From Escherichia phage CMSTMSU, in sequence record MH494197.1: a DNA stretch of 64,000 bases. One strand, given 5' to 3'. Below, piece after piece: positions 1-64,000 of the stretch; the first letter of the stretch is position 1; every line of letters begins with the position of its first letter. The translations under genes and the position numbers were made by a program. The notes beneath the pieces were generated by a model. It was given only the letters and a program-made list of their open reading frames with translations. It was not told the DNA's origin and searched no databases.

Positions 1-9
1 AACTGTACT

Positions 10-132
10 TTAATGGGTCCACTGTAATTGAGATTCTTCTAGGAACTTGATACATCTGAAATAATCTTTCAAGGAAAGAAATTTAACTACTGACATATCC
101 TGAACAATACTATGCTGAACTTCAACTTTCAT
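10..132 (-). CDS. small hypothetical protein (40 aa)
   Basis: ATG with AAGGAG Shine-Dalgarno about 6 nt upstream; downstream of rnlA on same strand; no recognisable motif. Confidence 0.3.
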   Translation of the reverse strand: MKVEVQHSIVQDMSVVKFLSLKDYFRCIKFLEESQLQWTH

Positions 133-141
133 ATGAACTCC

Positions 142-395
142 TTATAGTGGGTCGAATTTATTTTCACGTTTTGATGTATAGCGAGTTACATCATGTATTC
201 TCGGCTTAACACCTTTTGGTTTCCTTTTCTTCTTGTATTCAGTACTACTACACCCGAAAGTATTCTCGATTCGTTTCTTACTAATCTTCACACCTTTCTT
301 AGAGCGTTTGTGCTGTAATTCATCGATTTCTTCTTGTATTTTCCTGAATTCTGTCGGAGAAAGGGAACCGTCATTTTATACTTAGGTTTAGCCAT
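142..395 (-). CDS. lysine-rich basic small protein, frame apparently interrupted
   Basis: ATG (MAKPKYK...) with AGGAG SD, continues in another frame (...SKKGVKISKKRIENTF...KKKRKPKGVKPR...) to a stop near 142. Confidence 0.25.
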
Positions 396-414
396 CACTT
401 CTCCTTGTGCTAGG

Positions 415-1566
415 CTAGATAGTACTAAAATCCTTTAGTACAATTTTCATGTACTTAATAAGAGTCTCTTTGTAATCGACTTTCTTATTGTTGTACATTG
501 CAAAGGCCAAGCCCTGACGATTCAGTTCATTAGTTAAACACTCCTGAACCTTCTTAGCGAATTCCTTTCGCTCCAAGTGCTTGTGTTCCTTGACGAAGCT
601 TTCAACTTCATCTTGTAAAGCATTATAGCACGAAAAGACTAGTTGTTCCATTCTTAATATCTTTTGGGTAGCATATTCGTCAGTACTGAACAACTGTTTT
701 AAATCATCACTCGAACCATTTAATACAGCTTCATATAAATGGGAATCGATTATAATACTGTCTTTCGTTAAATGCAAAGAACAATACCAGTCGGTTTTGA
801 TTTTGCACATTGTACCATTATTTAGGATGCACACAAAACCTTCAATGTCAAGCATTTTCTTAACTTCTTCAACACTTTCTTTGAATGTAGCACGAACAGG
901 GAAAGTGTAATGAATATCTTTACCTGTCATGTTAGTACTGTACTGTGCAAGGCATGGGAACTTATTACGTAATGCAGAACCACATAATAGTTCACCACTC
1001 TTGCGATGGCGAACGTTTAGTACAAATATTTGTTCAACCCGGTATGGTAATACAATACGGTACTCTGGACTTGTATACTCCAGATTAACAGTATAGCCCA
1101 AACGGTCTGCTTCGTCAATGTATTGATACAAATTTTGGTTCTCATTGAGAAGACGAGTACTGTTAATCGCATGGTCTGAATACAATGCAGTATGTGATTT
1201 ACAACGAATTACACCATCATTATCACGGTAAGTACTGATTACTGAACCATCCAACTTAGGCATCACTACTGCAATGTCATCGAATGTGGTATCAGCAGGG
1301 AACATTGTAGTAGGATTTTCGTAAGCATTGAAGAACTTTTTCATAGTACGAGCAGCACAACGAATCATATCACCGTCTTCATCAATTTCCCACATAGAAC
1401 CACGGGTTTCTAATGCATTGGGTTGCATGAAATCGGTATATGATGCTAGACGATAACTGAATACACGATATGTTCCACCAGCAGGACTTTTATGATCCAC
1501 ATAAAAGAAAGCCTCACGAGTATTACATAAGTGCATTAAATCTTCATATATTTGTAAAAGGGTCAT
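415..1566 (-). CDS. rnlA: RNA ligase 1 (T4 Rnl1 family)
   Basis: 383 aa; N-terminal FFYVDHKSPAGGTYRVFSY and nucleotidyltransferase motif I PKLDGS align by eye with T4 Rnl1 (FFYSDDVSASGRTYRIFSY; KEDGSL with active-site Lys). Confidence 0.85.
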   Translation of the reverse strand: MTLLQIYEDLMHLCNTREAFFYVDHKSPAGGTYRVFSYRLASYTDFMQPNALETRGSMWEIDEDGDMIRCAARTMKKFFNAYENPTTMFPADTTFDDIAVVMPKLDGSVISTYRDNDGVIRCKSHTALYSDHAINSTRLLNENQNLYQYIDEADRLGYTVNLEYTSPEYRIVLPYRVEQIFVLNVRHRKSGELLCGSALRNKFPCLAQYSTNMTGKDIHYTFPVRATFKESVEEVKKMLDIEGFVCILNNGTMCKIKTDWYCSLHLTKDSIIIDSHLYEAVLNGSSDDLKQLFSTDEYATQKILRMEQLVFSCYNALQDEVESFVKEHKHLERKEFAKKVQECLTNELNRQGLAFAMYNNKKVDYKETLIKYMKIVLKDFSTI

Positions 1567-1871
1567 TTTATTACCTCTATATCTACATCTGTGCCATAGT
1601 AGGAAACGTAACCATTATCTGAATTACATTGAATTGATAACTCTGATTCATAGTATGTTACTTTGATCACTGTTAGAACTTTTTCATCAATTTTTCCCGT
1701 TAAATAATCCATTTCACGAACACGAACTTTGGTTCCTTTTGGGAGTTCTTGTGCAATTTTATTAACAAGTTCAAAAGCAGCTTCTTCAAGTGTGTGCAAC
1801 AATTGCAATCTATCTTGGATATTCATGTTATTTCCACCAAGTTGTATCACGACCACCAGACAAAGATTCAT
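1563..1871 (-). CDS. hypothetical protein
   Basis: track ORF; overlaps next ORF by 44 nt, may be the C-terminal part of a frame-shifted gene. Confidence 0.35.
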   Translation of the reverse strand: MNLCLVVVIQLGGNNMNIQDRLQLLHTLEEAAFELVNKIAQELPKGTKVRVREMDYLTGKIDEKVLTVIKVTYYESELSIQCNSDNGYVSYYGTDVDIEVIK

Positions 1872-2274
1872 TGTACTGATGCCTGAAATTAGTATTTGGA
1901 TTATTTGTCATTGTACTAATAAAATCAAATTTAACATTCTCTTGAATGTAATTAATAACATTATCTTTAAATTTAATAGTACTGAAATCTAAATCCAAAT
2001 GTTCATACAATACCGGATGACAAAACTCATGTGTACGCAACGATGGCATGGTATCCTTAATGTATTGCACAGTGTTAATCATTGCATTGTATTCAGGCAT
2101 AGCACGCATCATCATTAGCTGAAAGTGTTCTTCCTCTGACATTGACTCATCCAAATCAATAACGACTTCATCATTTTTAGAGTCATATACTTTAATGGAA
2201 CTCTTGGTTGGATCAAGCATAGCCCACTCTGGATACAGGCATGTTTTCCAAAAAGGATTATTGCACTGAAACAT
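1828..2274 (-). CDS. hypothetical protein with family-A-like motif (SEEEHFQLMMM) and an HEFCH pentapeptide
   Basis: track ORF 148 aa; motif read directly; HExxH alone is insufficient to call a metallopeptidase. Confidence 0.4.
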   Translation of the reverse strand: MFQCNNPFWKTCLYPEWAMLDPTKSSIKVYDSKNDEVVIDLDESMSEEEHFQLMMMRAMPEYNAMINTVQYIKDTMPSLRTHEFCHPVLYEHLDLDFSTIKFKDNVINYIQENVKFDFISTMTNNPNTNFRHQYNESLSGGRDTTWWK

Positions 2275-2518
2275 ACTAATTAGATTTTGATTTTTATCAA
2301 AATAGCAAACCCAAGATCCGAACTTGGCTGTACTTCACATACACAAATATCATAAGGAGTCTTCAGTACTGAATGAACCAACTACATTTGATATATGTGA
2401 ATATGGAGTTTCTCTTGATTTTAATTCAAAGGCTCTCTCCATACGATTAACCTGTGGTTGTAATGTAATTACACCCCTCAGTACATATAAAATTCTATCT
2501 AAATCTTTAATCAAAATT

Positions 2519-6243: not shown

Positions 6244-6321
6244 ATATTCACCAAATCAACAGAGAATAAGTCGTTATCAAATTTATATGAAAGTACTAAT
6301 CTACCACCAAAACTATCGACT

Positions 6322-7707: not shown

Positions 7708-7843
7708 AGTTATTTCCTCATGTATTTTATTACATCTTCAAATAGTTTAGTTTTCAGTGCATCATCATTACGTAGAAAAGTACTGAAGCTATTAAAATCT
7801 TCATTCTTGGCAAACTCACGCATCTGTGTGGAACTGTAGCGAC

Positions 7844-8238
7844 TTACATTTCGGTCAATTCCAGCTTGAACTGCCTTGATTGAACAAAAATTATATAACT
7901 TCCCATTGTACGTGTCAAGCGTTTTTGGAATGGTTCAAGTCTGTCTGAACCACATATGAAAAGAACATCTAAGTACTTTCCATCCAGTTCTCTCATTATA
8001 TCAAACAGATTATCTTCTGTATAGATATTTTCTTGTACAGATGGGTAAAATCCTTCTGTATAGTACATTTTCAGTTCAGGAGGTAATGGGTTTTGATGGC
8101 ATCAGTACTGGTACTAAGGAATATTTTCAAATCAGCATTGTACTGTTCTTGTAGTGCTTGAGCTTTTTCAAACACTAAACCATGACCTCGATGTACAGGG
8201 TTAATTCTTCCGAATGTCACTACGCATGTTTCTTTCAT
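7844..8238 (-). CDS. cytidylyltransferase-like nucleotidyltransferase (possible NMN adenylyltransferase), split into two frames
   Basis: N-terminal piece 8071..8238 reads MKETCVVTFGRINPVHRGHGLVFEKA (G-x-F-x-P-x-H-x-G-H signature), then a stop and continuation in ORF 7844..8068. Confidence 0.5.
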
Positions 8239-8311
8239 ATGTTCTTCATCACCTGACCAATAGATTTAAGATGGTTGATTTTAGCTGGAGTCAAATACTT
8301 ATCCAGTACTA

Positions 8312-8760
8312 TTAAACAACTAGGGAATGGAGCACTGTCAGTCTTTTATCTGGTTCTTCAGGGATACCGAACTTTAAGCGACCTTTTATAAAACAAATAC
8401 AATCACAAACTTTCGCAGCATAATCCTGAAAGGCTATAGTATCAGTTCTTGATGGTACGAGAATCAGTACTGTAGCACCTTTGTTATATGCATCAACTGC
8501 CTTAGATAACCACGTTTTCAAATCACTGTACGGTGGGTTGAGCCACACGATATTGTTTCCCAGTCCTGTTCAAGTGAATTGTCTTCTGGTGTAAAGAACT
8601 TATCACACAATGCAGTTTCTTTGACACACGCTGCATCTAGTGTAAATTCCCAGAGTTCATCCAAATCTTCAAAGAAATCCTTTGGAGTAGTCCAGTTATC
8701 TTTTCCAGTACTGAAATGTACTGATTGTTTTTCTTCGAAGCATCCTTCTTCGACATACAT
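8312..8760 (-). CDS. Dam-like DNA N6-adenine methyltransferase (PF05869-like), frame-shifted
   Basis: WTTP, FTLDAAC, NPPYS, PSRTDT and KGRLKF motifs across overlapping ORFs 8518..8760 and 8312..8548; shift lies just before NPPY. Confidence 0.7.
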
Positions 8761-10872: not shown

Positions 10873-10879
10873 TGGTTTA

Positions 10880-11184
10880 TTAGTGGCTTGCCCAGCAGTA
10901 AACAGGACGTAGATTTTCCATTGGGTTTACTTCAGGCTTCAGTACTGTAACACGAACTTCATACGGAGTACCATCTGCATGATGGAACGTTTCGTAATGA
11001 ATACTCTCAATGAAGGTTTCATATTCTTCTTGAGAACGTGAACGAACTGATGGGGAATATTTCTTTTGGTATCTGATTTTAGTGTAACACTTACTAGTTC
11101 TGATTCTTCACCATTTTCAAGTTTATTGAAATCGAACTCTGGTACACCTTCAAACATATCAAATTTCATTCCGTTGTCTTCCAT
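10880..11184 (-). CDS. hypothetical protein, apparent frameshift at a CCCC run
   Basis: track ORF 10939..11184 continues in another frame to a stop near 10880 if one C is added at aatattCCCCatcag. Confidence 0.4.
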
Positions 11185-49081: not shown

Positions 49082-49099
49082 GATAAAACTCCTTAATTT

Positions 49100-49161: not shown

Positions 49162-49164
49162 TAC

Positions 49165-49498
49165 TTTTACATTTTAATACCGGATTCAGGTAGCGGTGAG
49201 ATCCATATTCTGGATCGGTTTCGGTCCAGTACTGTAAATCGATAGTACCTTTCGCGTTAATCTTGTCTACCAGCTTATTCATCTTAGCGTATACTACGTC
49301 AGCATCGATGCGTTTAAAGCCAGTAGCTTTAGTGAAGTAGTAGTGATTTGCTTCACTATCATTAAGGATATACCGAGCACCGTTTGCCGTTTGTGCGATA
49401 ATGATTGAGTATTCTACGTTACGGTCGAGGCCGTCGATGAATACAGAGGAAACATTAGTACGGATGAAAGCTTTAACGATAGCGATTGAAGTAGTCAT
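49165..49498 (-). CDS. hypothetical protein, 3' end unresolved
   Basis: MTTSIAIVKAFIRTN...; reading frame runs through the downstream cassette without a stop. Confidence 0.35.
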
Positions 49499-49587
49499 TT
49501 TGAATCTCCTAACTTTGTGGGCCGTCGCACCATTGCCGCCCTACGAGATACATTATTGCAGTACTGATATACTTTGTCAATACTTTT

Positions 49588-49725
49588 TATTAATAGTTTT
49601 AGTTCCACCAGCAGATAGTTACTCACCGTTATTAACTATATATTTTGGATACACCTATGCACCCTGTGGGCTAGTTTTTGTCTATGCGTATATATAGCAG
49701 GACTGACCGAGTCAATCCCTTTTTA
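49588..49725. repeat. ~130 bp repeated intergenic element, copy 1
   Basis: shares ATGCACCCTGTGGGCTAG ... TATATAGCA(A)GGACTGACCGAGTCAATCCCTTTTT with copies at 52.3, 55.6 and 60.1 kb. Confidence 0.6.
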
Positions 49726-49956
49726 TTCTTTTTGTTAGATGATTCTCCAATCATCAACGATCATGGTAAGATACCGAACCAGTGATTCGAGTGATTCGTG
49801 TTCTCGATAGTCTGCCGCTCCACCAGCGGTACAAGTACAGCCGATTAAGCCGTTTTGTAGTTCCGGATCTTTACGTCGATCTGGTTGGCTTTAGCTTCTT
49901 TCAGTACTTCAACCGGGCGAGAGCGATAGACATAATGTTTTACTCCAAACTATTGG

Positions 49957-50016
49957 CGGGAGAACTATTCCCCGCTCTATGTAAAACATTATACATTACT
50001 GGTTAGTACTGTCAAA
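49957..50016 (-). promoter_or_regulatory. PeSL-like cassette
   Basis: TTGACA - 16 nt - TATAAT on minus strand, hairpin GCGGG...CCCGC just downstream. Confidence 0.55.
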
Positions 50017-50022
50017 TAGTTT

Positions 50023-50280
50023 TTATGAAATATCTTCGATGTAGTCGGCCCATTTCATTTTTTCAGTACTGTCAATGGCTACCGGATTATTTGGATCAAA
50101 CCATTCACCATTACCGCAGTACATACCCACGGCTACGGTTTTATAGCCATCCCGGGCCGCACACCACGACATTGCACGATAGATATGGCCTTTAACTGGT
50201 TGCAGTACTGGTAACGTTTTATGGTCTTCTACGTAGGCCATAGCTTGTGGATTTACCCGATATTGTGTGAACTGTTCCAT
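50023..50280 (-). CDS. hypothetical protein (85 aa)
   Basis: track ORF; promoter-like sequence upstream. Confidence 0.45.
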   Translation of the reverse strand: MEQFTQYRVNPQAMAYVEDHKTLPVLQPVKGHIYRAMSWCAARDGYKTVAVGMYCGNGEWFDPNNPVAIDSTEKMKWADYIEDIS

Positions 50281-50593
50281 TATGTTTCCCCTTGTAGTTA
50301 GTAAAGTTATTACATCAGTACTATCAAGCTATGTCAATAGTACTGAAATAAAACTTTTAGATTAGATTATTGAGGCCGTCAATGGTAGACTCACTTTCTT
50401 CTTTCTCCCATTGTCGGTAGTACTTCCATGCTTCATGATAGGTGGCGATCAGTTCATCTTTTGATCCGGTTACATGCCAGTACTGAATCACGGTGAGCGG
50501 TGTTATAGATAGAATCGAATGATTTCTTCTCTTCTGCCGTTAGCTACTTCCCGCATCAGTTCATCAAAGTTAGCCATTTTATTACTCCTTTTA

Positions 50594-50650
50594 GTGGGGA
50601 GGATATCTCCCTATGCAAAACATTATACTTTGTTTTAGTTATTATGCAAG
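50594..50650 (-). promoter_or_regulatory. PeSL-like cassette
   Basis: TTGCAT - 15 nt - TATAAT; hairpin GGGAG GATAT CTCCC. Confidence 0.5.
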
Positions 50651-50902
50651 TACTTTTTCATATAAACATTAAATTCTACACCGCCGTAACCTTCCACGAT
50701 GATATGTTTTGCGTTATCACGTTTGCACATAGTGAAACCATCGTTTACGTGTTTTGCATTTTCGGGCGACATCACCGATAGCGGCACATACGGCACTAAT
50801 AACAGTATTCCGCAAAGTACTGGTATCATTGGCGGTCATAGTAGTTTGCAGTACTACGTTGTCGTATACGTGTGCATTGATAGTGATTTCGATAGTGTTC
50901 AT
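50635..50902 (-). CDS. hypothetical small protein, frame-shifted
   Basis: ORFs 50717..50902 and 50635..50829 overlap in two frames and look like one gene. Confidence 0.35.
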
Positions 50903-50916
50903 GGTGTATCTCGACT

Positions 50917-50978
50917 GGCGGGAGAACTATTCCCCGCTCTATGTAAAACATTATACGTTAATCTAACTACAATGCAAG
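50917..50978 (-). promoter_or_regulatory. PeSL-like cassette
   Basis: TTGCAT - 16 nt - TATAAT; hairpin GCGGGAGAACTATTCCCCGC. Confidence 0.55.
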
Positions 50979-51233
50979 TACTTTTAAATTTTATTTCCGA
51001 TATAGTCCGGTCTATTCTTTTCGGTCATACGCTTTGCTAATGTTTGCATATGGCTTATTGCTTGTAGTGTATCCTCTTCCGGGATGAATCGAGATAATCA
51101 GGATCATTCTTCACCTTGCAATGATTATGATAGCGTAGTACTGCCAGTACTTTTTAACTTCTTCTACTGTCATAATAAGTACCCACTTCGTTAGCTTTCA
51201 GGTTAGTATCAATCATCAGTGGATTTTTGTAGT

Positions 51234-51440
51234 TCACAAAACGAGTAGTTTTCTCGATAGCGAATCCCATATAATCCAGCTTACTAACAGTACATTCATT
51301 CTTAAAACTTCTTTCGCTGCATCGATGGCTGATTGCATGGATAACCGACCATCTAAATTAATGTTTCCAAATGATCCACCAGCAGAAGTAGGATTACCGT
51401 TCATATCTTTAATGATCATAGTAGCGGAGTAGCTGGACAT
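51234..51440 (-). CDS. hypothetical small protein
   Basis: track ORF 68 aa; AAGGA SD; cassette immediately upstream. Confidence 0.45.
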   Translation of the reverse strand: MSSYSATMIIKDMNGNPTSAGGSFGNINLDGRLSMQSAIDAAKEVLRMNVLLVSWIIWDSLSRKLLVL

Positions 51441-51463
51441 AATTTTGTTTCCTTTTATTGGTG

Positions 51464-51520
51464 TGGGAGAACTATTCTCCCTTGATGTAAACTATTATAC
51501 AGTACTGATATACTTTGTCA
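51464..51520 (-). promoter_or_regulatory. PeSL-like cassette
   Basis: TTGACA - 16 nt - TATAAT; perfect hairpin GGGAGA ACTAT TCTCCC. Confidence 0.6.
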
Positions 51521-51559
51521 AATACTTTTATTCGCCCATATAGATTAGATTATCATCGC

Positions 51560-51930
51560 CTACATAGGATCGCAAACGTTGATTTCTTCGCAGTACTTCG
51601 TGAATACATCGCCATAGTGACCTAAACCACGATCCCAAAACCAGTTCCGTGACCTTCGCGGGTAAGGAACAGATCATGACCAGCTTGCTCATAACCGTAA
51701 TCAATAAACATACCGCGAACTACTTCCAGATCATTACCGTGTTTCTCAATGAAGCGAGAACATGCAATCACTGCCGCTTGATGGGCTTGCTCTGATAATT
51801 CATAATCTTCCGTAATCGCCGTTCTCATTGTGTACAGTACTGAATTGCATAGCTTCAATGTAAGCTACAACCATTGCAGCATGATTTTTATCGTTAGTGA
51901 TGTTCCGAGCGAGATTAGTAGTAGTAGACA
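51560..51930 (-). CDS. hypothetical protein, frame-shifted
   Basis: ATG MSTTTNLARN...; continues in two other frames through ...REGHGTGFWDRGLGHYGDVF... Confidence 0.35.
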
Positions 51931-51951
51931 TGATTTTATTCCTTTTAGTAT

Positions 51952-52009
51952 CGGGGAGAACTATTCTCCCTTGATGTAAACTATTATACAGTACTAATAT
52001 ACTTTGTCA
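51952..52009 (-). promoter_or_regulatory. PeSL-like cassette
   Basis: TTGACA - 16 nt - TATAAT; hairpin GGGGAGAACTATTCTCCC. Confidence 0.6.
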
Positions 52010-52254
52010 ATACTTAATTACGTTTAAAATGATATGTGCCTTTATCATCCTGTACGCCCCATACTGATTTACCATCAACACCAGTGAAGCCGGATTGTAA
52101 TTCAATATGGAAACCATTATTATCAACTACAAAAACTTTTTATTTTCATCCCGATAACATTGATATTCTGAATCAACATTAAAGGCCGCATCATTCAGAA
52201 GATTAGAAGCGTAAATGCAAGTCATTGTAGTCATGATTTTATTCCTTATTGCCG

Positions 52255-52308
52255 TGGAACCGTTCCTCTCGATATAAAACATTATACTTGATTCTAAGTA
52301 TAATGCAA
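52255..52308 (-). promoter_or_regulatory. PeSL-like cassette
   Basis: TTGCAT - 16 nt - TATAAT; hairpin GGAAC C GTTCC, stem sequence differs from other copies but pairing is kept. Confidence 0.55.
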
Positions 52309-52311
52309 GTA

Positions 52312-52446
52312 CTTTTTAAAATAGTTTTCAGTACTGAATACTTATATAATAGATACACTTCCGCACCCTATGGGTCAGTGAGTTATCTCTCAATGGATAT
52401 ATATAGCAAAGGACTGACCGAGTCAATCCCTTTTTAATCTTTTTAT
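52312..52446. repeat. ~130 bp repeated intergenic element, copy 2
   Basis: CGCACCCTATGGGTCAGTGAG...GGACTGACCGAGTCAATCCCTTTTTAATC. Confidence 0.6.
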
Positions 52447-52507
52447 CGTGTTACCTTACTTGCTGCCACATCACGCTTTTTATAGTACTGATTCCAGATA
52501 TTGCTGG

Positions 52508-52825
52508 TTAAACCGTAATCAAGTACTTTAATAAGTCCATTACGATCCCGCCGATATTCTGTTTTCTGATATCTCTTATCGTTAGTGTTGATAATGTATC
52601 ATCGACGTGTTGTAGTGCATCAGCAAAGCGGTGCTGGCGTTCAATGGCATTACGTTTAATATTGTACTTTAATTCATTGCACGCGTTTACGTGCTTTACA
52701 CTGCCTTTACTTGCAGTACTCAACCGATCCATAACGATAAACATATTATCAGGATCGCATAAATGCATATGCACCTTTGCAAAGTACTGTTTCAACTGAG
52801 GGCGGTCATAGTCTAAAAATTCCAT
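52508..52825 (-). CDS. hypothetical protein (105 aa)
   Basis: track ORF. Confidence 0.45.
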   Translation of the reverse strand: MEFLDYDRPQLKQYFAKVHMHLCDPDNMFIVMDRLSTASKGSVKHVNACNELKYNIKRNAIERQHRFADALQHVDDTLSTLTIRDIRKQNIGGIVMDLLKYLITV

Positions 52826-52891
52826 ACCTTACATTCAGTTTCATTTTGTTCGACACCCGCATCACAATTCGCGACCTTAATCACTAACCGA

Positions 52892-53080
52892 TCATTTAAA
52901 GCGAAAACTATACGGGAAGATCCGCCCGATGATCTCCAGTCCAGCTAACCGACAAGCTGAAAGGATCTCTTTGTTGGTTTCCATTTCTGACAGTGTACGG
53001 ATGAATTTAGTATAATTACGCATTGCATGTTCTCCTTGAGTTAATGAAACTATATTACAGTACTTTACTATCAATGGCAA
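52892..53080 (-). CDS. hypothetical small protein
   Basis: track ORF 62 aa. Confidence 0.35.
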   Translation of the reverse strand: MPLIVKYCNIVSLTQGEHAMRNYTKFIRTLSEMETNKEILSACRLAGLEIIGRIFPYSFRFK

Positions 53081-53296
53081 CTACTTTTTAACATTAACGG
53101 CGTGAATCACTTCCTTAGTGTTTTTAGTACTGAATACTTTCGCCGCTCCTTGTTCGACCGTGATACGATAGCGACCATTAACATCAACCATATTAATAAA
53201 GTCCGGCGTGCTGAATGGTGTTGTTTTGCATTTGAGTACTGTTAACAGTTCCACCAGCGATGTAGTTTCTTTGATACGTTTTTCTAAAGTAATCAT
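53081..53296 (-). CDS. hypothetical small protein
   Basis: track ORF 71 aa; promoter-like repeat upstream, also found before the next gene. Confidence 0.4.
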   Translation of the reverse strand: MITLEKRIKETTSLVELLTVLKCKTTPFSTPDFINMVDVNGRYRITVEQGAAKVFSTKNTKEVIHAVNVKK

Positions 53297-53434
53297 TTTG
53301 TTTCTCCCCGTGTTGGTATGTACATATAGTACTAAAACATTTGAGTACTGTCAATTAGATAATATTATATTTCTTAAAATAAAATGCGTCTTGTGTTGGT
53401 TGATACTCGATACCGTTACCGTTATTGACTTCAA

Positions 53435-53629
53435 CTAATAAACCTTTGTCAATAAGTTTTTAATAGTACGATACCCTTGTTGAAAATTGGTAAAATGTGA
53501 ATCATTACGAAAGGTATAACCGTGCTTAACTGCTTCATCAATAGTTTTCTTTTCGATTTTAGATAATTTCATTTTGTTTCTCCCGTGTTGGTATATGTAC
53601 ATAGTACTAAAACATTTGAGTACTGTCAA
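53435..53629 (-). CDS. hypothetical small protein
   Basis: track ORF; likely start at internal MKLSKIEKK with GGGAGA SD. Confidence 0.4.
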   Translation of the reverse strand: MTVLKCFSTMYIYQHGRNKMKLSKIEKKTIDEAVKHGYTFRNDSHFTNFQQGYRTIKNLLTKVY

Positions 53630-53890
53630 CGTGATATTAGTTTTATTTTCTTATTGTATTGTTGATGCTCATAAAGGTTTATCTTTCCTGTGTTCTCGAT
53701 TACTATCCTGTTGTTAGTGTCCACATCGATTACACGCAGTTTCCGTTGCTTAACTTCCGGGTAATAGGTTACCATTAATAAACTCATTAGCAAGCTGTAC
53801 GGCCTTTGTGATGATTCTCTTCGGTGCTTTATAGTGTACCCGTAAGATGTTATCTTTATATAGTTGAACCTTAATCATTTTGTTTGTCCT

Positions 53891-53916
53891 ATAAAAAGGC
53901 GGGAACTGATCCCGCC
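53891..53916 (-). terminator. rho-independent terminator (minus strand)
   Basis: stem GGCGGGA/TCCCGCC, loop ACTGA, followed by U-run in minus transcript. Confidence 0.6.
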
Positions 53917-54423
53917 GTGTTGTTAGTACTGCAAGTTATTAGATAACCGGCGGCGTTTACTGTATACTGTTACACGATTACCCTTACGGTCGTGTCGGAT
54001 CTCTTTCTGGTTGCGAATCAGTTCACTTGGACGCTTAAGGTTTGCCGTGATCCGCGTGAGTCCATGCATTGGCATTTACCTGTACTTTGATATCAGAACC
54101 AGCGATAAACTCATCTTGTGCGTCAGTATTGCCGCCAGCATATCCGCTCGTTTTAGTTCTGCTGCTGTTAGTACTGGCTCAGGTGAATTCACAATATCAG
54201 AGATCTTTGAACTGTACGGCCCAGCGTTGGCCTTTCGGTGCATCTTTGCCCATGTCTTTAAATGCTGCTCCTTCCTCGCGTGCAACAATACGGGCAGCTT
54301 CACGGGTAGCGTAGAATTTAGTAATCATGGTATACATCCTATTAGTTAAGTTAGTACTACAAGTTAGAGTCTATTATAAAGTACTATCTGGGCAATGTCA
54401 AATAGTACTTTAAATGGATTCTA

Positions 54424-54745
54424 TTACATGTCTTTCTTACGTTTTACATCGTGGTAGCGAACTGTTATTTCTTTGTTGATCTCTTCCTCGATGCGGTGAA
54501 TAACTTTTTCTTTCGGGTTGAAACCTATAACGGTTTCTTTAATGATCTCAAGCCCGTGTATTCGCCTTGTGTACCGTAACCGTATGTAAAGGTTTCGTGT
54601 CCCGTGTCTTCCAGCGGTCGCCAATTAACGCAGACACGTAGCAAGAGTGGTAAGTATTGCCGTGTGAATCAGTCCACCGATTAACGTTAATGTCAAAGGA
54701 GGTTACAATTTTCAATTCTACTTTCTGGGCAAGGATCATAGCCAT
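54424..54745 (-). CDS. hypothetical protein, frame-shifted
   Basis: MAMILAQKVELKIV...NVNRWTDSHGNTYHSCYVS; two overlapping track ORFs. Confidence 0.4.
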
Positions 54746-54764
54746 TTTATTTCTCTCTTTTAGT

Positions 54765-54825
54765 TAGGAGGAACCATTCCCTCACTTGATGTAAACTATT
54801 ATACAGTACTAAGATACTTTGTCAA
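54765..54825 (-). promoter_or_regulatory. PeSL-like cassette
   Basis: TTGACA - 16 nt - TATAAT; hairpin in 5' leader. Confidence 0.55.
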
Positions 54826-54843
54826 TACTTATTTTTGGAAAGT

Positions 54844-55008
54844 TTACGCATTAATTCTACGCTTTCTTGTGAACGTTTTGCTACCGGCAAGCTGCATGGG
54901 TAGTAAACATTTTGTATAGTCTGACGCTTTGCCACCGAACCGAGCGGCACGTTCACGGGCACTTGGAACTAATACTATTTCTTTCTTGCAGATAGTGCAC
55001 TTAGCCAT
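54844..55008 (-). CDS. small Cys-containing protein (54 aa)
   Basis: MAKCTICKKEIVLVPSARERAARFGGKASDY...; own cassette upstream. Confidence 0.4.
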   Translation of the reverse strand: MAKCTICKKEIVLVPSARERAARFGGKASDYTKCLLPMQLAGSKTFTRKRRINA

Positions 55009-55027
55009 TTTATTTCTCTCTCTTTGT

Positions 55028-55089
55028 TAGAGGGGAACCGTTTCCTCACTCGATGTAAACTATTATACAGTACTAAGATACTTTGTCAA
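55028..55089 (-). promoter_or_regulatory. PeSL-like cassette
   Basis: TTGACA - 16 nt - TATAAT; hairpin GGAA ACGG TTCC. Confidence 0.55.
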
Positions 55090-55093
55090 TACT

Positions 55094-55366
55094 TAATTAT
55101 TGTAAATGTCGTGAATAGTGATAAAGTTTTTACGACCGTAAACCTGCAAATCAATATCAATGTAGTGCTTATCTAGTACATCCTCGACGCTTAACGCGGT
55201 GTCGTGGATATCTTCGTAGAATTGAGTATCTACAATCTTGCTTAAGTCATCCGGCGTTAACTCATCGTTAAGCAGTTGAACCGCCGGATATCTGCTTCAC
55301 GTTTCCAGTCTTCCAGTTAGTAGTCAGTACTTGTTCGATTTCGTTAGCTGTCAGTAGAATCCGCAT
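55094..55366 (-). CDS. hypothetical protein, frame-shifted
   Basis: MRILLTANEIEQVL... then ...LLNDELTPDDLSKIVDTQFYEDIHD... in another frame. Confidence 0.35.
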
Positions 55367-55547
55367 TTTTATGTTTCCTTATCAGTGGTTGATGTAAGTA
55401 TTATACTCGTTTACTTTCTATTGTCAAACTATTTTATCAGGGAGTTTTTCGTATGTCTTACTCGACTACTTAACGGGGTTACTTGTTTCGTTCCCCGTCC
55501 TGATGTAAAACATTATACTTGATTCTAAGTACAATGCAAGTACTTTT

Positions 55548-55670
55548 TAAAAATAGTTTTCAGTACTAGCCACCAGCAAACAATAGATACATTTATGCAC
55601 CCTGTGGGCTGATTTGTTTCTATGCGTATATAATAGCAAAGGACTGAATCCCTTATTCAATTATTTTTAA
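55548..55670. repeat. ~130 bp repeated intergenic element, copy 3
   Basis: ATGCACCCTGTGGGCTGA...TATAATAGCAAAGGACTGAATCCC. Confidence 0.55.
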
Positions 55671-55816
55671 ACTTCTTTCGGGTTGCGATAGGTGATAGCG
55701 TTCGGGTACATTTGTTTAATGTTATTCCATGCCCGGTTGACATTGTAACCACTTGATCGAATCAGTTGGTTACTACCGACACCTTGAAACACTACTTCGA
55801 ATAAGAATTCTTTCAT
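55668..55816 (-). CDS. small hypothetical protein (49 aa)
   Basis: MKEFLFEVVFQGVGSNQLIRSSGYNVNRAW... Confidence 0.3.
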
Positions 55817-56286
55817 GCTTTCACCTCGCGATCTGCTTTACCTTTACGCCGACATTACTAATTGTTCGCGTTGCCATAAGTCGAGTGATACAAAAGTTTT
55901 GCGGTATCACTTTTAGGATACTCGCCATTAGTACCTAACCGATAAAACAGATCTTTCAGTACTGATAATTCTACTTGGATCATTATACTTTCTCTTTGTT
56001 GGGAGGGAACTATTCTTCCGATATAAAACATTATACACTTTATTCAGTACAAGTACTTTTAATCTTTCAGCCAATGATCCTGAATGAATTTTTCACCGGA
56101 ACCTTGCTGCATTGATTGTAACAGACGTTCACGATGAGCGGCGGCGAATTGCTCAGTACTATGCGTTACACCGGTTGATATCTGGATTCACCATTGGGGC
56201 TGATGTATTGTACATCCCACGGTTTTTCGTTAGTATCAGACCATTTACGAACGATTAGTTGACCTTGCATTTTTCTTTCTCTTAGT

Positions 56287-56346
56287 GGGGAGAATCATTT
56301 CTCCCCTTCATGTAACTTATTATACAGTACTAGATTATCTTGTCAA
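56287..56346 (-). promoter_or_regulatory. PeSL-like cassette
   Basis: TTGACA - 16 nt - TATAAT; perfect 8 bp hairpin GGGGAGAA TCAT TTCTCCCC. Confidence 0.6.
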
Positions 56347-56351
56347 TAGTT

Positions 56352-56636
56352 TTATTCACCTTGTTTGAATTTAGTTTTCTCCATTGATTCCATGATTGCA
56401 ACCAATACGCCGTGGATCTCGCTTAACGCGGAATCACTAAAAGCATTAATGAATAGTCGATCATTCTCGCGAATATTTTTAATGTACTTTTCAGCAGTAG
56501 TTGCGAATTCATTCAACGGTAGATCAAATGCTTTATCCCATGATGGATGGCGTAATTGTAACAGTACTGGATTATCACGATCACGGGAAAACGTACCAGT
56601 GATGAAACATACGCCCGAATACTTTCGAACTGGCAA
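56352..56636 (-). CDS. hypothetical protein (94 aa)
   Basis: track ORF. Confidence 0.45.
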   Translation of the reverse strand: MPVRKYSGVCFITGTFSRDRDNPVLLQLRHPSWDKAFDLPLNEFATTAEKYIKNIRENDRLFINAFSDSALSEIHGVLVAIMESMEKTKFKQGE

Positions 56637-56959
56637 CGGACTTCCTTTGTGATAGTAGTATGAATGTACATTTATTGTTATCCTCTATTAAATTAATATT
56701 ACAGTTTATGAATCAATTCTTTATCTAAGCGATAGCGTACATTATTAATAGTAACGGCATTGTTTTAATGCTACGCTGTACAGGTCCACCAGCAATAACA
56801 AATGTTGCTTTATTACCCCGAACAATGATAGCACTTCCGTGATTACCGAAATCATCTTGTACTAAAATACTTGATAAGTTTTCCATTTTATTTCTCTTAG
56901 TAGGGAAGATGTTTCCTTGATGTAAGTACTATAACAGTACTGAAAACTAATTGCAAGTA

Positions 56960-57313
56960 CTATGATAAAATCATGATAGGATATTCACTATCGATCAGTA
57001 CCTCGAATCCGAACCCTTCGTACCATTCTTTAAGATTAAAGGCGTTATCTTCTCCGTATCGCATTCTAAGATGATACAATCTGAATCATCAGCGGCATCG
57101 ATAAAGGCATTCATTAATTCGTTACCTTCACCATTGCCCCGACTATCAGGATCAACATAAAGAGAATCAATGAAAGCAACACGGTCATAATCAAGATCCG
57201 GTGCAATGATTCCACGTTTAACAAACCAGTACTGCAATTGTGCTACTTTGCTGTACCTGATAACCAGTGATCTCGCCATTGTCAGTAGTACGCGTGATAT
57301 GTTGTATTCCCAT
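56960..57313 (-). CDS. GNAT-family N-acetyltransferase-like small protein, frame-shifted twice
   Basis: acetyl-CoA-binding motif ...VDPDSRGNGEGNELMNAFIDAA... and C-terminal ...EWYEGFGFEVL... readable across three frames. Confidence 0.5.
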
Positions 57314-57962
57314 GATTTCTATCCTCAGTTAAGATATAAAACATTATACACTATCTTTCAGTACTGTCAATTACTTTTATCTCATAGATCTATGCCAACA
57401 ATTACGCGGATCTCTTTAAAAGTACTATCATGATCCTCCGGCAAGTAATACAATACATGCACCTATAACGGCCCGGCGTCGATTCTCAGGGATTTTACCG
57501 CCGCAGTCGAGGCAATGTACAGTGATTCTCTTTGTGCGTTAATTTGCTTTCTAGCGTGGTTAACGGCGGCCTGAATCACTGCGTTAATCTCGTCTTGTTC
57601 GGCCCCGTCTTTCGCGAATCCTACAGCCATTATTTTAACCTCATTATAAAAATACTATAGTACTGTAATGCTACAATAATACTACTAGTGCTAATCTTAT
57701 TCAAACCACATGATACTACATATCCACCAGCATTACCACGGATAGTAACGCCTTTGTACTGTCTATATAAATTCAACTGCGTATATTGCCTTTGATCAAG
57801 AATTGATCAGAATTATACGCCTTATGCTAAATTGATCCAGTACTTTTGATCATTTATTGATCGATGTTATATAGTTACATTTGTGCACCCTATGGGTTAG
57901 TGACGTTCTCGTCTTGATGTAAGTATTATGCCAGTACTGGAGGATATTGTCAATAGATTATT

Positions 57963-58160
57963 TTAATTTTTTCTATCATTAATTAATGCTTTCAGTACTA
58001 TACTAATAACTTGCAATGATTCATCAATGACAATGAAATTATTCTCTTTCATTAGATGATAGTTACCATTGATTGTATATTCTAACGAGTACTGTTTACG
58101 TTTAATTTTTGATAATGTTTCTATTTGTTTTTGTACTGATTTCATGCTAATCATTGTCAA
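57963..58160 (-). CDS. hypothetical small protein
   Basis: track ORF 65 aa. Confidence 0.35.
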   Translation of the reverse strand: MTMISMKSVQKQIETLSKIKRKQYSLEYTINGNYHLMKENNFIVIDESLQVISIVLKALINDRKN

Positions 58161-58983
58161 ACGTCCTGTAACGCATTCTAACGAGATAAACGGTTGAGTA
58201 CTGGCATTGTATAGGGTAATGATTAAAGCCCACCAGCGTTAACCAGTGGGCTATAATCTTACATCTTGCGGATAATCTTAACAGTATCTTTCACCGATTT
58301 ACCGTTTTGCTGACATTGCTCGATCATCGCGTATTGTTCTGCGGTCAGATCCTCGCCAGTTTTTGCCAGTACTGCGTCGATGAATGAATCCAGTGCGATC
58401 ATTTTGTTTCTCTCTTAGGTTAAGTTAACTACTGTTTATAAAACTTATTATACAGTACTATCAAACTATGTCAATAGTACTGGTAATATATTTTAGCGGT
58501 AGTCGTCGTATGCTTTATTCACGGCGAATATAACTTTCAAAGGCTTCGTCTACCGTTTCATACTCCCGAACATAATCACCATATGAAACTACATACATAC
58601 CTTTTGATCTTCAAACGTCATGATGATAGAATCCAGACCAACGATTTCAGTTTTTGCGATGATAGCCATTTTTAATTCCTTAGTAGTGTAGTTGATAAAA
58701 GTTATTATGTCAGTACTATCAAACTATGTCAATAGTACTGTGATAATATTTTAGTTAATGATAGTCAGTGTAAAATTGTAATCCCCTGCCCGTATAGTAC
58801 TTTATCGCCGAACGTTCCAACACGTTTCATATTGCAATAGATACCCATAACACTTTTACATCTTTGATATTCCGAACGCCAGTAATATCCTTGTTTAAAT
58901 GATCGTGATCAGAAAATAAAACTTGTTTTGCATTTTTCAGTACAGTGCAGATATTAGCCATTTTGTTTTCTCTTCTGTTAGTG

Positions 58984-59041
58984 GGGAGAAGTTTTTCTCC
59001 CTTGATGTAAACTATTATACAGTACTATAATCTATTGTCAA
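58984..59041 (-). promoter_or_regulatory. PeSL-like cassette
   Basis: TTGACA - 16 nt - TATAAT; hairpin GGGAGA AGTTTT TCTCCC. Confidence 0.6.
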
Positions 59042-59414
59042 ACTATTTTTTATATTATTCGAAATCTTCTGGACCGGACTGATAATCATCTTCACCGTAT
59101 GCACTTTCTAACCGCTCGCCAGTGCAATCATCAGTTAGTGAGTCATCCTCATAGTTCACGTCTACGCCAGTGATGTAAAACTGGCTATCGTCTGGATCAT
59201 TGAAATTAATTTTCTGGATGTTTACAATAACTGTATTGATGCCGTGACACCGCCATCAGCCGTTACAAAGTACTGATATTTTTCACAACCGCCTGAATTG
59301 AAACCGTAATTAATTTCGGCCCGACCATCACTTAAACGCAGTGTCTGAGCGATGATTTCATTTTCAAAGTTAGATTGAGCAATTGCAATAGTCATGATTT
59401 GTTTCTTATTATCA

Positions 59415-59471
59415 GGGAAACCGTTTCCCTTTCGATGTAAAACATTATACGCTTATCAGGAAGTAATGCAA
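59415..59471 (-). promoter_or_regulatory. PeSL-like cassette
   Basis: TTGCAT - 16 nt - TATAAT; hairpin GGGAAA CCG TTTCCC. Confidence 0.55.
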
Positions 59472-59957
59472 GTACTATTTCACGTTAATTTCAAAGTACT
59501 GCTCTTTGATGTTTTCCTGTTGGTAAATCTCGTTTAATGCTTTAAGATCTAAAACCTGTTTACCTGCTGCCTGAATATACTTTTAAGAGTCGCTAACAGC
59601 TTCTCAGGCGTGTTTGTAGTCTTACGTGTTGGGATCTTATCGTGCCCCATAGCGTAGTACTGCTTACGTGCTATAGTACTGATAACACTGCGGTACGGTT
59701 CCATGATCAGCTTGTCTGTATTCGTCGCTATCCCCAAACTTCATACCGTGGATCGCAAAGGTCATCATCATGCGGTCGTTATCGCGGATATTGTGGGGCA
59801 GTCGGCAAGCTCGCGAGTCAGTGACATAGTGATCCCCACGTCGCCACCCAGCGGTAAAGGTCGGGCGATAAAGAAACCGTTAGGGAATACTTTCAGGAAG
59901 TTTTCTTGAACTGCTGCGACGAATTCGATGCTATTCATAATTCATTTCCTTAATTAG

Positions 59958-60015
59958 TGGGGAAGTTGTTTCCTCTTGATGTAAAACATTATACGCCTAT
60001 TGAGATAGTTTGCAA
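59958..60015 (-). promoter_or_regulatory. PeSL-like cassette
   Basis: TTGCAA - 16 nt - TATAAT; hairpin GGAA GTTGT TTCC. Confidence 0.5.
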
Positions 60016-60032
60016 GTACTTTCTACAAATAC

Positions 60033-60160
60033 TTTTAAAATAGTTTTCAGTACTCAATACTCATATAATAGATACACTTATGCACCCTGTGGGCTAGTGA
60101 GCTATCTCTCAATGAATATATAATAGCAAAATGGCTGACCGAGTCAACCACTTTTTCATT
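60033..60160. repeat. ~130 bp repeated intergenic element, copy 4
   Basis: ATGCACCCTGTGGGCTAGTGAGCTATCTCTCAATGAATATATAATAGCAAAATGGCTGACCGAGTCAACC. Confidence 0.6.
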
Positions 60161-60271
60161 TATTTTAGCTTTTAGAATCGCCGCCTTTCGCGTCATGCCT
60201 TGCTTGATGTATTCTGTACTTTCGCTTTACGTGCATTCGCTTTATTTGCTTTCGTAAACGCCGAACAACTT

Positions 60272-60580
60272 TTATAGTTTAAACCTGTTGGATTCATTTA
60301 AATCACCATAAAGAATAGATAGGTTACTAACAACGCCGCGATCAATGCACCGACCGAACTGTAATAAGCTAATGATCTCATTTTTAGCCTGAAAATAATG
60401 TTTAATTTGAGCGGCGGTCAGTGCACAATTACGCAGGAAGTTTTCTGTATAACTTTTGCGAGTACTGAAAGAGAATTGACCTTTGCTGCTGCCGATAGTA
60501 ACATCAAACCGAGCGTTGTATTGTTTCATTTTGTTTCTCCTGTTATTGGGGAGAATCATTTCTCCCTTCATGTAAAACAT
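60272..60580 (-). CDS. hypothetical protein
   Basis: track ORF 102 aa; probable start at internal MKQYNARFDV. Confidence 0.4.
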   Translation of the reverse strand: MFYMKGEMILPNNRRNKMKQYNARFDVTIGSSKGQFSFSTRKSYTENFLRNCALTAAQIKHYFQAKNEIISLLQFGRCIDRGVVSNLSILYGDLNESNRFKL

Positions 60581-60605
60581 TATACAGTACTAAAACTAAT
60601 TGCAA
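60548..60605 (-). promoter_or_regulatory. PeSL-like cassette
   Basis: TTGCAA - 15 nt - TATAAT; hairpin GGGGAGAATCATTTCTCCC, identical to copy at 60771. Confidence 0.55.
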
Positions 60606-60770
60606 GTACTATTTTTAGATTTACGCAAACTTTCTACCATCTCAGGAGTAAGGTCTGCGGGTAGGAAACTACTTCATCAACGAAACGTAAAGGAATACCC
60701 CAGCGAAAGGTGAACGTGCTTTCTTAGTATTACTCTTTTTGATGCTTTCATTTCATATTCTTAATTAGTG

Positions 60771-60827
60771 GGGAGAATCATTTCTCCCTTCATGTAAAAC
60801 ATTATACGCGTTTAAAACTAATTGCAA
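60771..60827 (-). promoter_or_regulatory. PeSL-like cassette
   Basis: TTGCAA - 15 nt - TATAAT; hairpin GGGGAGAATCATTTCTCCC. Confidence 0.55.
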
Positions 60828-61691
60828 GTACTATTTGAAAGTAAATGCTCATACGCTACATTAACTACGTTTTCAATAACCGACTGTACAGAAAGATCCC
60901 CACTTCCGGCTATAGTAGAAATCGCTTACAGTAGTGTCATCGTATGCAAATACTTTACCGTGACTGCATCAATCACATACATATTAACCTTTAAGATGTC
61001 GATCTTATCCTGTACAGTAAGCATATTAATTAACCTTTTAAGTACTGACTTAAGTAATCTTGTTGATCTTCGGTGATTGCAGCCATCTTCCCTAGTACTG
61101 GATTAATGATATAATCCCTGTAACGTCCTGTAACGCATTCTCAGGCGGTTTAACGGCTGGGGTAGCCATAGCCATTGCCGACTTGTTCGACGCTGTAACG
61201 CTCATAAAGGCGGCATTCTTCCGGTGTTAACATAGCATCAATGCGTTTCATTGGTTTAATGATGCTTTCGATCTCATTCAGTACTTGATTAACGTTCATG
61301 GTATAATCCCAATATAAGCGGCCTAAATCGACCGCTAACGATGTTTTGATTAATAGGTGTATGGTTGACGTTCAAACAATGATTGCACGTTGTACGCCCC
61401 GCTTATGGGCTTTGCTGGTAAATCAATTTTATATTGTTCACGCTTAAAGATAATAAAACGGCAATTGTTTTAACATCAAAATTGATTGAACGTTCCGAGT
61501 TTACCATCGTGCACAAATACAAGATAACCGCTCGCTACTTGTTTTGTAGTACTGGTTGCAACCATAGACCGCCGAACATGTGTACCTGCGTCGATTAAAG
61601 TACTGATATTTTTCATTTTACTATCCTCTTAAGTTGATTTAATTTCTTTCCCTATGCAGACACTGTACCAAAGTATCTGCATAAAGTAAAG

Positions 61692-62013
61692 CTAATTAAA
61701 GATCTTTTTACGTTTTACATCCTGTACAGTACAATGCAACGGGATAGACAAATCATTGCACAAACGATAGAGGGAGGTTTCATCAGTATTAAGCCCGTCT
61801 ACTGATTCCTTTAAGAGAGATAACGCCGTTTGTTGGTATGCATCTTCATAGCCATAAGTAAATGATTCAACCGCCAGATCATTCAAGCCGTTATCCAGTT
61901 CGACGCTTACATGACAAGAATGATGTATTGCCATATGAATCAGACCAACGTTTACCGTCAACATTGATTGCACGGATTGCAGCCGAAACGGTGTTAATGA
62001 TAGTTTTAGCCAT
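61692..62013 (-). CDS. hypothetical protein, frame-shifted; paralog of 54424..54745
   Basis: MAKTIINTVSAAIRAINVDGKRWSDSYGN then ...HHSCHVSVELDNG...; shares RW-x-DS-x-GN-x-YHSC-x-VS with 54424..54745. Confidence 0.4.
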
Positions 62014-62263
62014 TTTAGTATTCCTTAAATTAATATGTGTCGTCTTGATAAAATCTATTATGCCAGTACTATCAAACTATGTCAATAGTACTGTGATAAT
62101 ATTTTTACTTACTTTTTGCTTTCTTTATTGCTTCCACCGGTCGGCCCATTCTTTACCCCATACTTGTAAATTATAATGGTACTGGCAAAGTGCAACGCCC
62201 CGCTTTAAACCAGTAATAGATTTTTACCACATTGACAAGTTTTCATTTTAGTTTCCTTGTAGT

Positions 62264-62321
62264 GGGAGAACCATTTTCCCCTTGATGTAATGTATTATAC
62301 TTTATTCGATTTACTTTGCAA
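62264..62321 (-). promoter_or_regulatory. PeSL-like cassette
   Basis: TTGCAA - 16 nt - TATAAT; hairpin GGGAGAACCATTTTCCC. Confidence 0.5.
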
Positions 62322-62338
62322 GTACTTTTTAATTTAAT

Positions 62339-62551
62339 TCATCCGTAAAGGATACGCTCAACGCCCAAATCAGTTAAACTAATCGACGGCACTTGATAGG
62401 TTTCAATGTATGCTACACTTGCCCACTGACCGAACTCATTAACGGCCGTATTCATTGCATTTTGCAATTCCACACCTTCCTTGTTGGTAATGACTGCAAC
62501 TACTTGTTCGTTGCCAGTAGTACCAGATACGCGAGTAATGATAATAGCCAT
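62339..62551 (-). CDS. hypothetical small protein
   Basis: track ORF 70 aa. Confidence 0.4.
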   Translation of the reverse strand: MAIIITRVSGTTGNEQVVAVITNKEGVELQNAMNTAVNEFGQWASVAYIETYQVPSISLTDLGVERILYG

Positions 62552-62986
62552 TTTTTAATTCCTATTCAGTAGTTGATGTATGTATTATGCCAGTACTTAA
62601 AACTATTGTCAAACTATTTTTAAAGTTTATCAATGATTGATGCCGTTTCATTGATAGTCTTGCCGTGTTTTGCACACGCGATAACTGCTTTAAATTCCTT
62701 TGATGACCAATCTTTCTTACTGCATACTGACATTACTTGTAAAGTAAAACAATCCAGTTCATAAGTATTCATCTTTATATCCTCAGTTAGTTAAGGTGTC
62801 TGCCTTGATGTAATTAATTATACGCTAATCTCTTAATCGTGCAAGTACTTTTATTACTTTTTGCAAAATACTTTAAACGCTCTCAATCGCATTACAACGA
62901 CCTTAACGCCACCAGCTAGGCAATGCATCAGATAATCAGTTTAAAGCGTTAGAATCGTTTCTAGGCGGTGCTGGTGGCGTAAACGA

Positions 62987-63015
62987 TAAAAAAAGCCCAC
63001 CGTTTAAGGTGGGCT
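62987..63015 (-). terminator. rho-independent terminator (minus strand)
   Basis: 8 bp GC-rich stem AGCCCACC/GGTGGGCT, loop GTTTAA, followed by 7 U in minus transcript; 13 nt downstream of stop at 63028. Confidence 0.7.
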
Positions 63016-63027
63016 AGTGATTCAGTT

Positions 63028-63406
63028 TTATGCTTCAACTTTGCGATGAGCTTCGATCCATTCCTCGCGAGTCATACCACTGGAGTTAATCGCGTCCAGT
63101 ACTACCGCAATGCAGTTACCACGCACCGGAATCAGATATTCTTCCCGTTGTACTACCGCTACGCGTTCCTGAATCCATTTTTGGCTTTTACTTCTGGCTT
63201 GTCTTCCCATACTTAACCGCCGTGGCTTTTGTGCCATCTCTGTAACTACTTCCAGATCCAACTACTGCCGCCTGAATACTTTCGATTGTTGCTTGTAGTT
63301 CTGCTTCACGGGCCGCCTTTGCCGCTTCAATTTCTGCCGCTTTATTTGCTTGTAGTTCTTTCGCAGTACTGTAAGCGATGTTAAAATTATTGCGTACCGC
63401 TTTCAT
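63028..63406 (-). CDS. hypothetical protein, frame-shifted
   Basis: overlapping ORFs 63188..63406 (Ala/Glu-rich, coiled-coil-like) and 63028..63261. Confidence 0.35.
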
Positions 63407-63690
63407 GGTATCGTTATCCAGTTCAGCCGGATCTCAGCCGCGACGTTAGTTTCATTTGCACCAGTGCTTTGATGAATGATTTTACATTAGCCATTTTATA
63501 AATCCTCAATTAAAGTTTAGTTTACGTTTATTAGTGTATCAAAGTTTTCTGACGTGTCCAGTTTTTCGTTCGACTTACTGGCGGTCTACTTAGTGCTCCC
63601 CGTCTTGATGTAATACATTCTACGCCTTTTTGCGGTAATGTCAACTACTTTCTTAAAACTATTTTCAAAGTATCTCAGTACTACGATACT

Positions 63691-63717
63691 ACAAAACAAA
63701 AAGCCCACCCGTGGGCT
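63691..63717 (-). terminator. rho-independent terminator (minus strand)
   Basis: stem AGCCCAC/GTGGGCT with U-rich tail in minus transcript. Confidence 0.55.
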
Positions 63718-64000
63718 GTATTAATCAGTAAGTAAAATATTAAACACTTTACCATTTAACGTTATTGGTGCACTGCTACCGTGCTCAAGATCCGTTAGTA
63801 TACCTGCAATCGCTTTATCATTGGCGACCTTTCCAGTGTCCAACAGTACGACAGTACTGATAAGATTAACGCTCGTTTCAATATCATAATGCACGGCGTT
63901 AAGGAGTTGTGTATACTGCTTTCGTTAAGTAAAACTATTCGTGCTGTCATGATGTACCCGTAGTATCTATCAACGGCAATTAATAACGCCGGAATGCGTT

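Follow-up and report, generated by a model that had tools for sequence, protein, structure and literature searches.

Among described phages, the 121Q/PBECO4-like jumbo coliphages (Asteriusvirus) are the closest counterparts of the DNA considered here, a stretch of 64,000 nucleotides from Escherichia phage CMSTMSU (sequence record MH494197.1; hereafter the window) in which many genes appear to be broken by short insertions and deletions (indels). Megablast searches of both window ends against GenBank phages returned Asteriusvirus genomes as collinear full-length matches, the closest being Ecwhy_1 (MH791411), fEgEco12 (PP777464) and WPEC3 (PV611058), with 98.6% identity over the first 20 kb and about 98% identity to the window at aligned bases. 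As judged from sequence, the window represents the early genes of an Asteriusvirus. Its minus strand carries the annotated genes of the three relatives, bar a few very short WPEC3 calls, in the same order from the RNA ligase through the terminal-repeat region; besides the ligase, the relatives' genes in this stretch comprise a cytidyltransferase-like gene, a Dam-family methyltransferase, arrays of paralogous small hypothetical genes, a GNAT acetyltransferase and DksA-like zinc-finger proteins. Unlike the window, the relatives keep their open reading frames (ORFs) open and have 60-65 copies of the Dcm motif CCWGG (CCAGG or CCTGG) in the homologous stretch. An early clue to the discrepancy was that 20,000 window bases correspond to 20,122 bases in the relatives. 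fEgEco12, the reference for several of the comparisons below, was sequenced on the Illumina HiSeq platform (PMC13070987).

The second system that bears on the window is a technical one. When native enterobacterial DNA is sequenced on the Oxford Nanopore platform, the consensus errors obtained with default models are most numerous in Dcm motifs, and errors in homopolymer length come next (Wick, Judd & Holt 2019, Genome Biol 20:129; PMC6591954). The window resembles this R9-era profile in having its errors at CCAGG/CCTGG and in homopolymer length (runs of at least 3 in the published class), and its overall indel error of about 0.9% is of the order reported there for older basecallers, if somewhat above the best figures of that study, chiefly in the terminal-repeat region. 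We are highly confident that the broken genes reflect errors in a consensus built from signal-based long reads of native DNA, likely an unpolished Oxford Nanopore R9-era assembly, and the feature is almost certainly a sequencing artefact rather than biology. The original prediction, made from the window alone, had ranked sequencing or assembly error first and pseudogenization second, an order that the three close relatives (one of them Illumina-sequenced) support; its statement that many genes are interrupted by apparent single-nucleotide indels was correct and, as detailed below, understated the extent.

Indel load and its sequence context

Comparison with close relatives had been proposed with the original prediction as a check, and it yielded a strong deletion bias, a scaling of deletions with homopolymer length, the loss of CCWGG sites and the return of reading frames upon repair of the indels. 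For this comparison, the homologous regions of the relatives were merged and then aligned to the window by blastn, which gave the following overall feature:

1..64000, genes on the minus strand: short indels across the window, about 400-430 window-specific deletions and 34-47 insertions, about one indel per 145 bp

Against Ecwhy_1, the window shows 407 deletion events, 323 of them single bases, and 41 insertions; the corresponding deletions and insertions are 427 and 34 against WPEC3, and 402 and 47 against fEgEco12. The bias toward deletion is therefore about 10:1 in the window, whereas the controls between relatives are balanced, with just 42 deletions and 31 insertions for Ecwhy_1 versus WPEC3, and 23-60 of each for Ecwhy_1 and WPEC3 versus fEgEco12. 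Three-way polarization points the same way, with 532 deleted bases unique to the window as opposed to 32 unique to WPEC3.

These deletions are concentrated in two sequence contexts, the first of which is the homopolymer. The fraction of fEgEco12 runs that are shortened in the window rises steeply with run length, from 0.2%, 0.5%, 1.3% and 6.9% for runs of 1-4 bases to 34%, 83% and 86% for those of 5, 6 and 7 bases, and the trend recurs against Ecwhy_1. Consequently few long runs are left: the window has 19 six-base and a single seven-base run versus 83-86 and 20-21, respectively, in Ecwhy_1 and WPEC3. Conversely, none of the insertions relative to fEgEco12 yields a run longer than 3 in the window.

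The second context is the Dcm motif, which hosts many of the non-homopolymer deletions. The window has no CCWGG site at all, where dinucleotide shuffles predict 31.5 +/- 5.9. Every site of Ecwhy_1 (57/57) and fEgEco12 (62/62), and all but one of the WPEC3 sites (61/62), is altered in the window, about 80% of them through a deletion of 1-5 bases and the remainder through substitution. By comparison, each of 12 control 4-5-mers, among them GATC, GGWCC and variants of the half-site, survives at 76-89% of its sites. We also considered errors at the Dam site GATC and rejected them, as this motif occurs 152 times in the window versus 140-148 times in the relatives and is 84-86% intact, like the control motifs. 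Two destroyed Dcm sites illustrate the pattern:

28004: Dcm site lost; CCTG is missing from the window where the relatives read CTTCCCTGGAAG
60353: Dcm site lost; CCAGGG is missing from the window where the relatives read GACCAGGGCC

Taken together, homopolymers of at least 3 bases and CCWGG sites explain about 70% of the deletions, and the absence of CCWGG combined with a shortage of runs of at least 6 bases serves here as a flag for such error that needs no reference genome.

We propose that two kinds of systematic basecalling fault lie behind this footprint. Homopolymers of at least 5 bases would be under-called, with one base or more dropped, while CCWGG sites bearing 5-methylcytosine, presumably placed by the Dcm enzyme of the E. 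coli host, would be miscalled and usually lose 1-3 bases. These two faults would account for most of the frameshifts; superimposed on them would be other deletions of lower specificity, which are more frequent in the terminal-repeat region. The real genes of the phage would then be intact, as they are in its relatives.

Reading frames, repair and competing explanations

At the level of genes, which we counted as minus-strand ORFs of 60 aa or more in the relatives, about 78% suffer at least one frameshifting indel in the window (119/151 for Ecwhy_1, 123/158 for WPEC3 and 122/157 for fEgEco12), with 306-323 frameshifting events in total. In the controls against fEgEco12, 12/151 Ecwhy_1 and 9/158 WPEC3 ORFs (6-8%) are frameshifted. 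Likewise, minus-strand ORFs of this size cover 64.5% of the window versus 88.7-89.1% of the relatives. When the relatives' bases were put in at deletions and insertions were removed, with all substitutions kept, 143/151 (Ecwhy_1) and 150/157 (fEgEco12) ORFs reopened. The Nei-Gojobori ratio of non-synonymous to synonymous differences (pN/pS), computed on the repaired codon alignments, lies at 0.22-0.25 for the window, as compared with 0.35 for Ecwhy_1 and 0.25 for WPEC3 in the control comparisons with fEgEco12. Since the window is no higher than these intact relatives, its substitutions show no relaxed constraint; they are under purifying selection.

Several observations weigh against ascribing every difference to consensus error on such a platform. 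We infer the platform, along with the methylation state of the template, from the error footprint alone. Sequence searches for the record behind the window did not recover it; they comprised a megablast of 6 kb against complete E. coli genomes and PLSDB plasmids, a search of IMG/VR with an exact 50-mer across a window-specific error, and an exact-protein look-up of two intact window ORFs. Phage BF17 (MW822008) was rejected as the source because it is in the collection searched, where a self-match would have reached about 100%. About 117-132 deletions (about 30%) fall outside homopolymer and CCWGG contexts, 7-8 ORFs still contain a nonsense substitution after repair, and the window-specific substitution branch is about twice that of the relatives (830 vs. 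325-380). The nonsense substitutions lie near 29467, 31745, 34733, 37483, 50929, 61710 and 62347. Some of the context-free deletions and stop-creating substitutions may be real differences, and part of the long substitution branch may be true divergence rather than error. Finally, one of the references, Ecwhy_1, is itself flagged UNVERIFIED in GenBank (its record holds misc_features marked 'similar to hypothetical protein'), yet the Illumina-based fEgEco12 yields the same result.

Among the alternatives, the homopolymer errors could stem from flow-based sequencing (454 or Ion Torrent) or from PacBio continuous long reads (CLR) that had not been corrected. Such an origin would fit the observed dependence on run length, and frameshifts in 454 and Ion Torrent artefacts likewise become commoner as runs grow. 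Flow chemistries, too, miscount long homopolymers, but they produce over-calls as well as under-calls, and no insertion in the window made a long run. In PacBio CLR data, the errors are rich in insertions and cancel out when a consensus is formed. Further, these platforms read amplified DNA or have no known miscalling of 5-methylcytosine, so that the loss of 100% of the CCWGG sites would be unexpected; in 454 and Ion Torrent data there is no reason for errors specific to this methylated motif. We therefore regard this origin as highly unlikely.

Widespread true pseudogenization of a decaying accessory region is an extremely improbable account, though the raw interruption of ORFs relative to their intact orthologs is what it would lead one to expect: most of the affected genes are small early ones with no assigned function, perhaps dispensable, and homopolymers are favored sites of replication slippage. 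Pseudogene-rich genomes (e.g., Mycobacterium leprae and recent host-restricted symbionts) similarly contain many frameshifted ORFs. Genuine decay, however, brings relaxed selection, indels of both signs, stops created by substitution and larger deletions. In contrast to such genomes, the window combines a pN/pS of 0.22, far from the shift toward 1 that accompanies relaxed selection, with a motif-specific deletion bias and only 7-8 ORFs with stop-creating substitutions, and the same genes are open in three near-identical phages. It is also implausible that decay, at about 1-2% substitution divergence, would alter runs in one direction only (83-86% of the 6-7-nt runs shortened and essentially none lengthened) and bring loss at every Dcm site (all 62 in fEgEco12, mostly through frame-breaking deletions); we know of no mutational process that deletes within every CCWGG site.

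Biological recoding, in which programmed ribosomal frameshifting or transcriptional slippage expresses the split genes, has a vanishingly small chance of being correct despite the many shifts in A/T runs of the slippage-promoting kind, because in the relatives each of these proteins is read from one frame, with the run one base longer and no conservation of the two-frame arrangement. The 2-6-nt deletions at CCWGG sites are not slippery sites, and upwards of 300 events spread over about 120 genes would, to our knowledge, be without precedent.

Split genes and the terminal-repeat region

The nanopore consensus-error explanation can be followed in individual genes. In all five examples cited in the original prediction, the relatives have whole genes where the window has broken ones; the corrected positions and lesions are as follows:

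7710..8238, minus strand: nucleotidyltransferase-like gene; 3 nt lost inside CCAGG at 7771, and one base lost from T-runs at 7921 and at 8090
8235..8756, minus strand: Dam-family N6-adenine methyltransferase, split; 1-nt deletions at about 8343 (T5 to T4), 8558 (C4 to C3) and 8727 (T6 to T5)
10880..11184, minus strand: 101-aa hypothetical gene; a single lesion, at about 11063, where a coding-strand A5 run has lost 1 nt (A5 to A4)
48404..49141, minus strand: two genes, whose Ecwhy_1 products have 69 and 154 aa; frameshifts at 48477 and 48601, and at 48810 and 48960, and a CCC deletion at 49116
56960..57313, minus strand: GNAT acetyltransferase; C-run deletions of 1 nt at 57053 and 2 nt at 57250

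The caution that gene coordinates were approximate was justified, as several had been truncated by the errors: the frame switching of the Dam-like methyltransferase, placed earlier at 8312..8760, is real, with the extent now corrected to that given above, and the same applies to the nucleotidyltransferase, placed at 7844..8238. Two window fragments of the former match positions 7-59 and 63-130 of the Pfam Dam model (PF05869), whereas the intact 174-aa protein of a relative matches positions 7-153 in a single stretch. The nucleotidyltransferase-like gene, described as lying upstream of the Dam gene, has homologs (Ecwhy1_355 and fEgEco12 g163) that are inconsistently annotated as 'ribonucleotide reductase A', 'cytidyltransferase' or 'phosphopantetheine adenylyltransferase' (PPAT). 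The first of these labels looks wrong, because Pfam gives just a weak, sub-threshold match to FAD_syn, a nucleotidyltransferase-fold family. The frame switching of the GNAT gene holds at its original coordinates, with both deletions in C-runs. In the 101-aa gene, the reported frameshift is genuine, but its site is an A5 run on the coding strand and not the CCCC run to which it had been assigned, which lies 12 nt downstream. The ORF-poor stretch at 48200-48880, in which readable protein segments had been noticed in alternating frames, is accounted for by two ORFs of the relatives (48404-48613 and 48682-49141) with two frameshifts each; no tRNA or known RNA genes were found that would explain the ORF-poor stretches.

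The end of the window differs from the remainder in composition and error density:

48270..64000: homolog of the 20,993-bp direct terminal repeat of fEgEco12; higher G+C, CCWGG about 4x expected in the relatives, indel density 2-4x

Position ~48,270 corresponds to the inner boundary of this repeat (fEgEco12 record 1-20993). At the same boundary, G+C steps from about 0.33 to about 0.38-0.41 (0.38 for the terminal-repeat region versus 0.33 for the rest), and tightly packed genes give way to short genes with longer intergenic spacers. The region has more intergenic DNA, which is rich in T-runs. Window-specific deleted bases number 11-34 per 4 kb before 48 kb and 53-95 beyond it. The earlier impression that most genes at 48-56 kb are broken agrees with the higher density of errors past about 48.3 kb, but the problem spans the whole window. 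Per-run error rates for short runs are 3-5x higher in the terminal-repeat region, which suggests poorer consensus quality, more true divergence, or both.

In the relatives, CCWGG sites number 46 in the 15.4 kb of the terminal-repeat region and 16 in the 48.9 kb of the unique part. Shuffles of fEgEco12 5553-20993, the counterpart of window 48270-64000, predict 11.5 +/- 3.5 against the 46 found, an approximately fourfold excess, and the motif is slightly under-represented in the adjacent unique region (16 vs. 22.7 expected). A role for the excess as a regulatory motif was considered and rejected: 30 of the 40 coding sites are in codon phase 2 (NNC-CWG-GNN) and supply CTG/CAG codons, which points to codon usage rather than a signal as the probable source. 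The terminal-repeat region also displays a repeated palindrome-like element, GACTGACC(N)GAGTCAA, and a TATAATAGCAAAG-like box (window 49701, 52412 and 60137; also 52398 and 55627), which are possibly promoter or terminator elements. Several copies of the short repeats in this region share an identical single-base deletion, which argues for context-specific miscalls.

Elsewhere, tandem arrays of paralogous small genes occupy window 13500-31500 and 42000-48100; in the relatives, their products are about 140-195 aa (the '121Q 370-409' series) and about 65-90 aa (the '121Q 319-340' series). These are presumably the two gene families, A and B, recognized in the original prediction, and their members are frameshifted like the rest of the window. 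For the segment at 9200-10040, the relatives' records annotate next to no coding sequence, or none (a gap between CDS, i.e., coding sequences, 357 and 358 in Ecwhy_1, and tiny ORF calls only in WPEC3), and no tRNA or Rfam match was found within it. As for the references themselves, short indels between relatives amount to 53-95 in about 64-70 kb, and the 9-12 ORFs of Ecwhy_1 and WPEC3 that look frameshifted versus fEgEco12 are clustered in a few genes. Hence, the public references also carry some errors or real variants.

Consequences for gene calls, and a possible map of virion methylation

The main value of these results is as a data-quality warning: gene calls from the window need correction, as any gene finder would mis-call, truncate or split about four-fifths of its genes. 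Claims of protein families, pseudogenes or 'novel small ORFs' drawn from it would therefore be artefacts, and findings that depend on frames, homopolymers, CCWGG/CCSGG counts or gene coordinates need to be re-checked against Ecwhy_1, fEgEco12 and WPEC3.

A further reading of the same footprint, which we consider unlikely though worth stating, is that it is an accidental methylation map, recording virion DNA that is essentially fully Dcm-methylated, and that real gene losses specific to this lineage could be represented by a minority of the approximately 120 context-free indels and 7-8 nonsense substitutions, which are concentrated in the terminal-repeat region. As every CCWGG in 64 kb is miscalled, the virion DNA of a lytic jumbo phage would, on that reading, be methylated at essentially all of its Dcm sites, whether the enzyme responsible is the host's or one that the phage encodes beyond the window.

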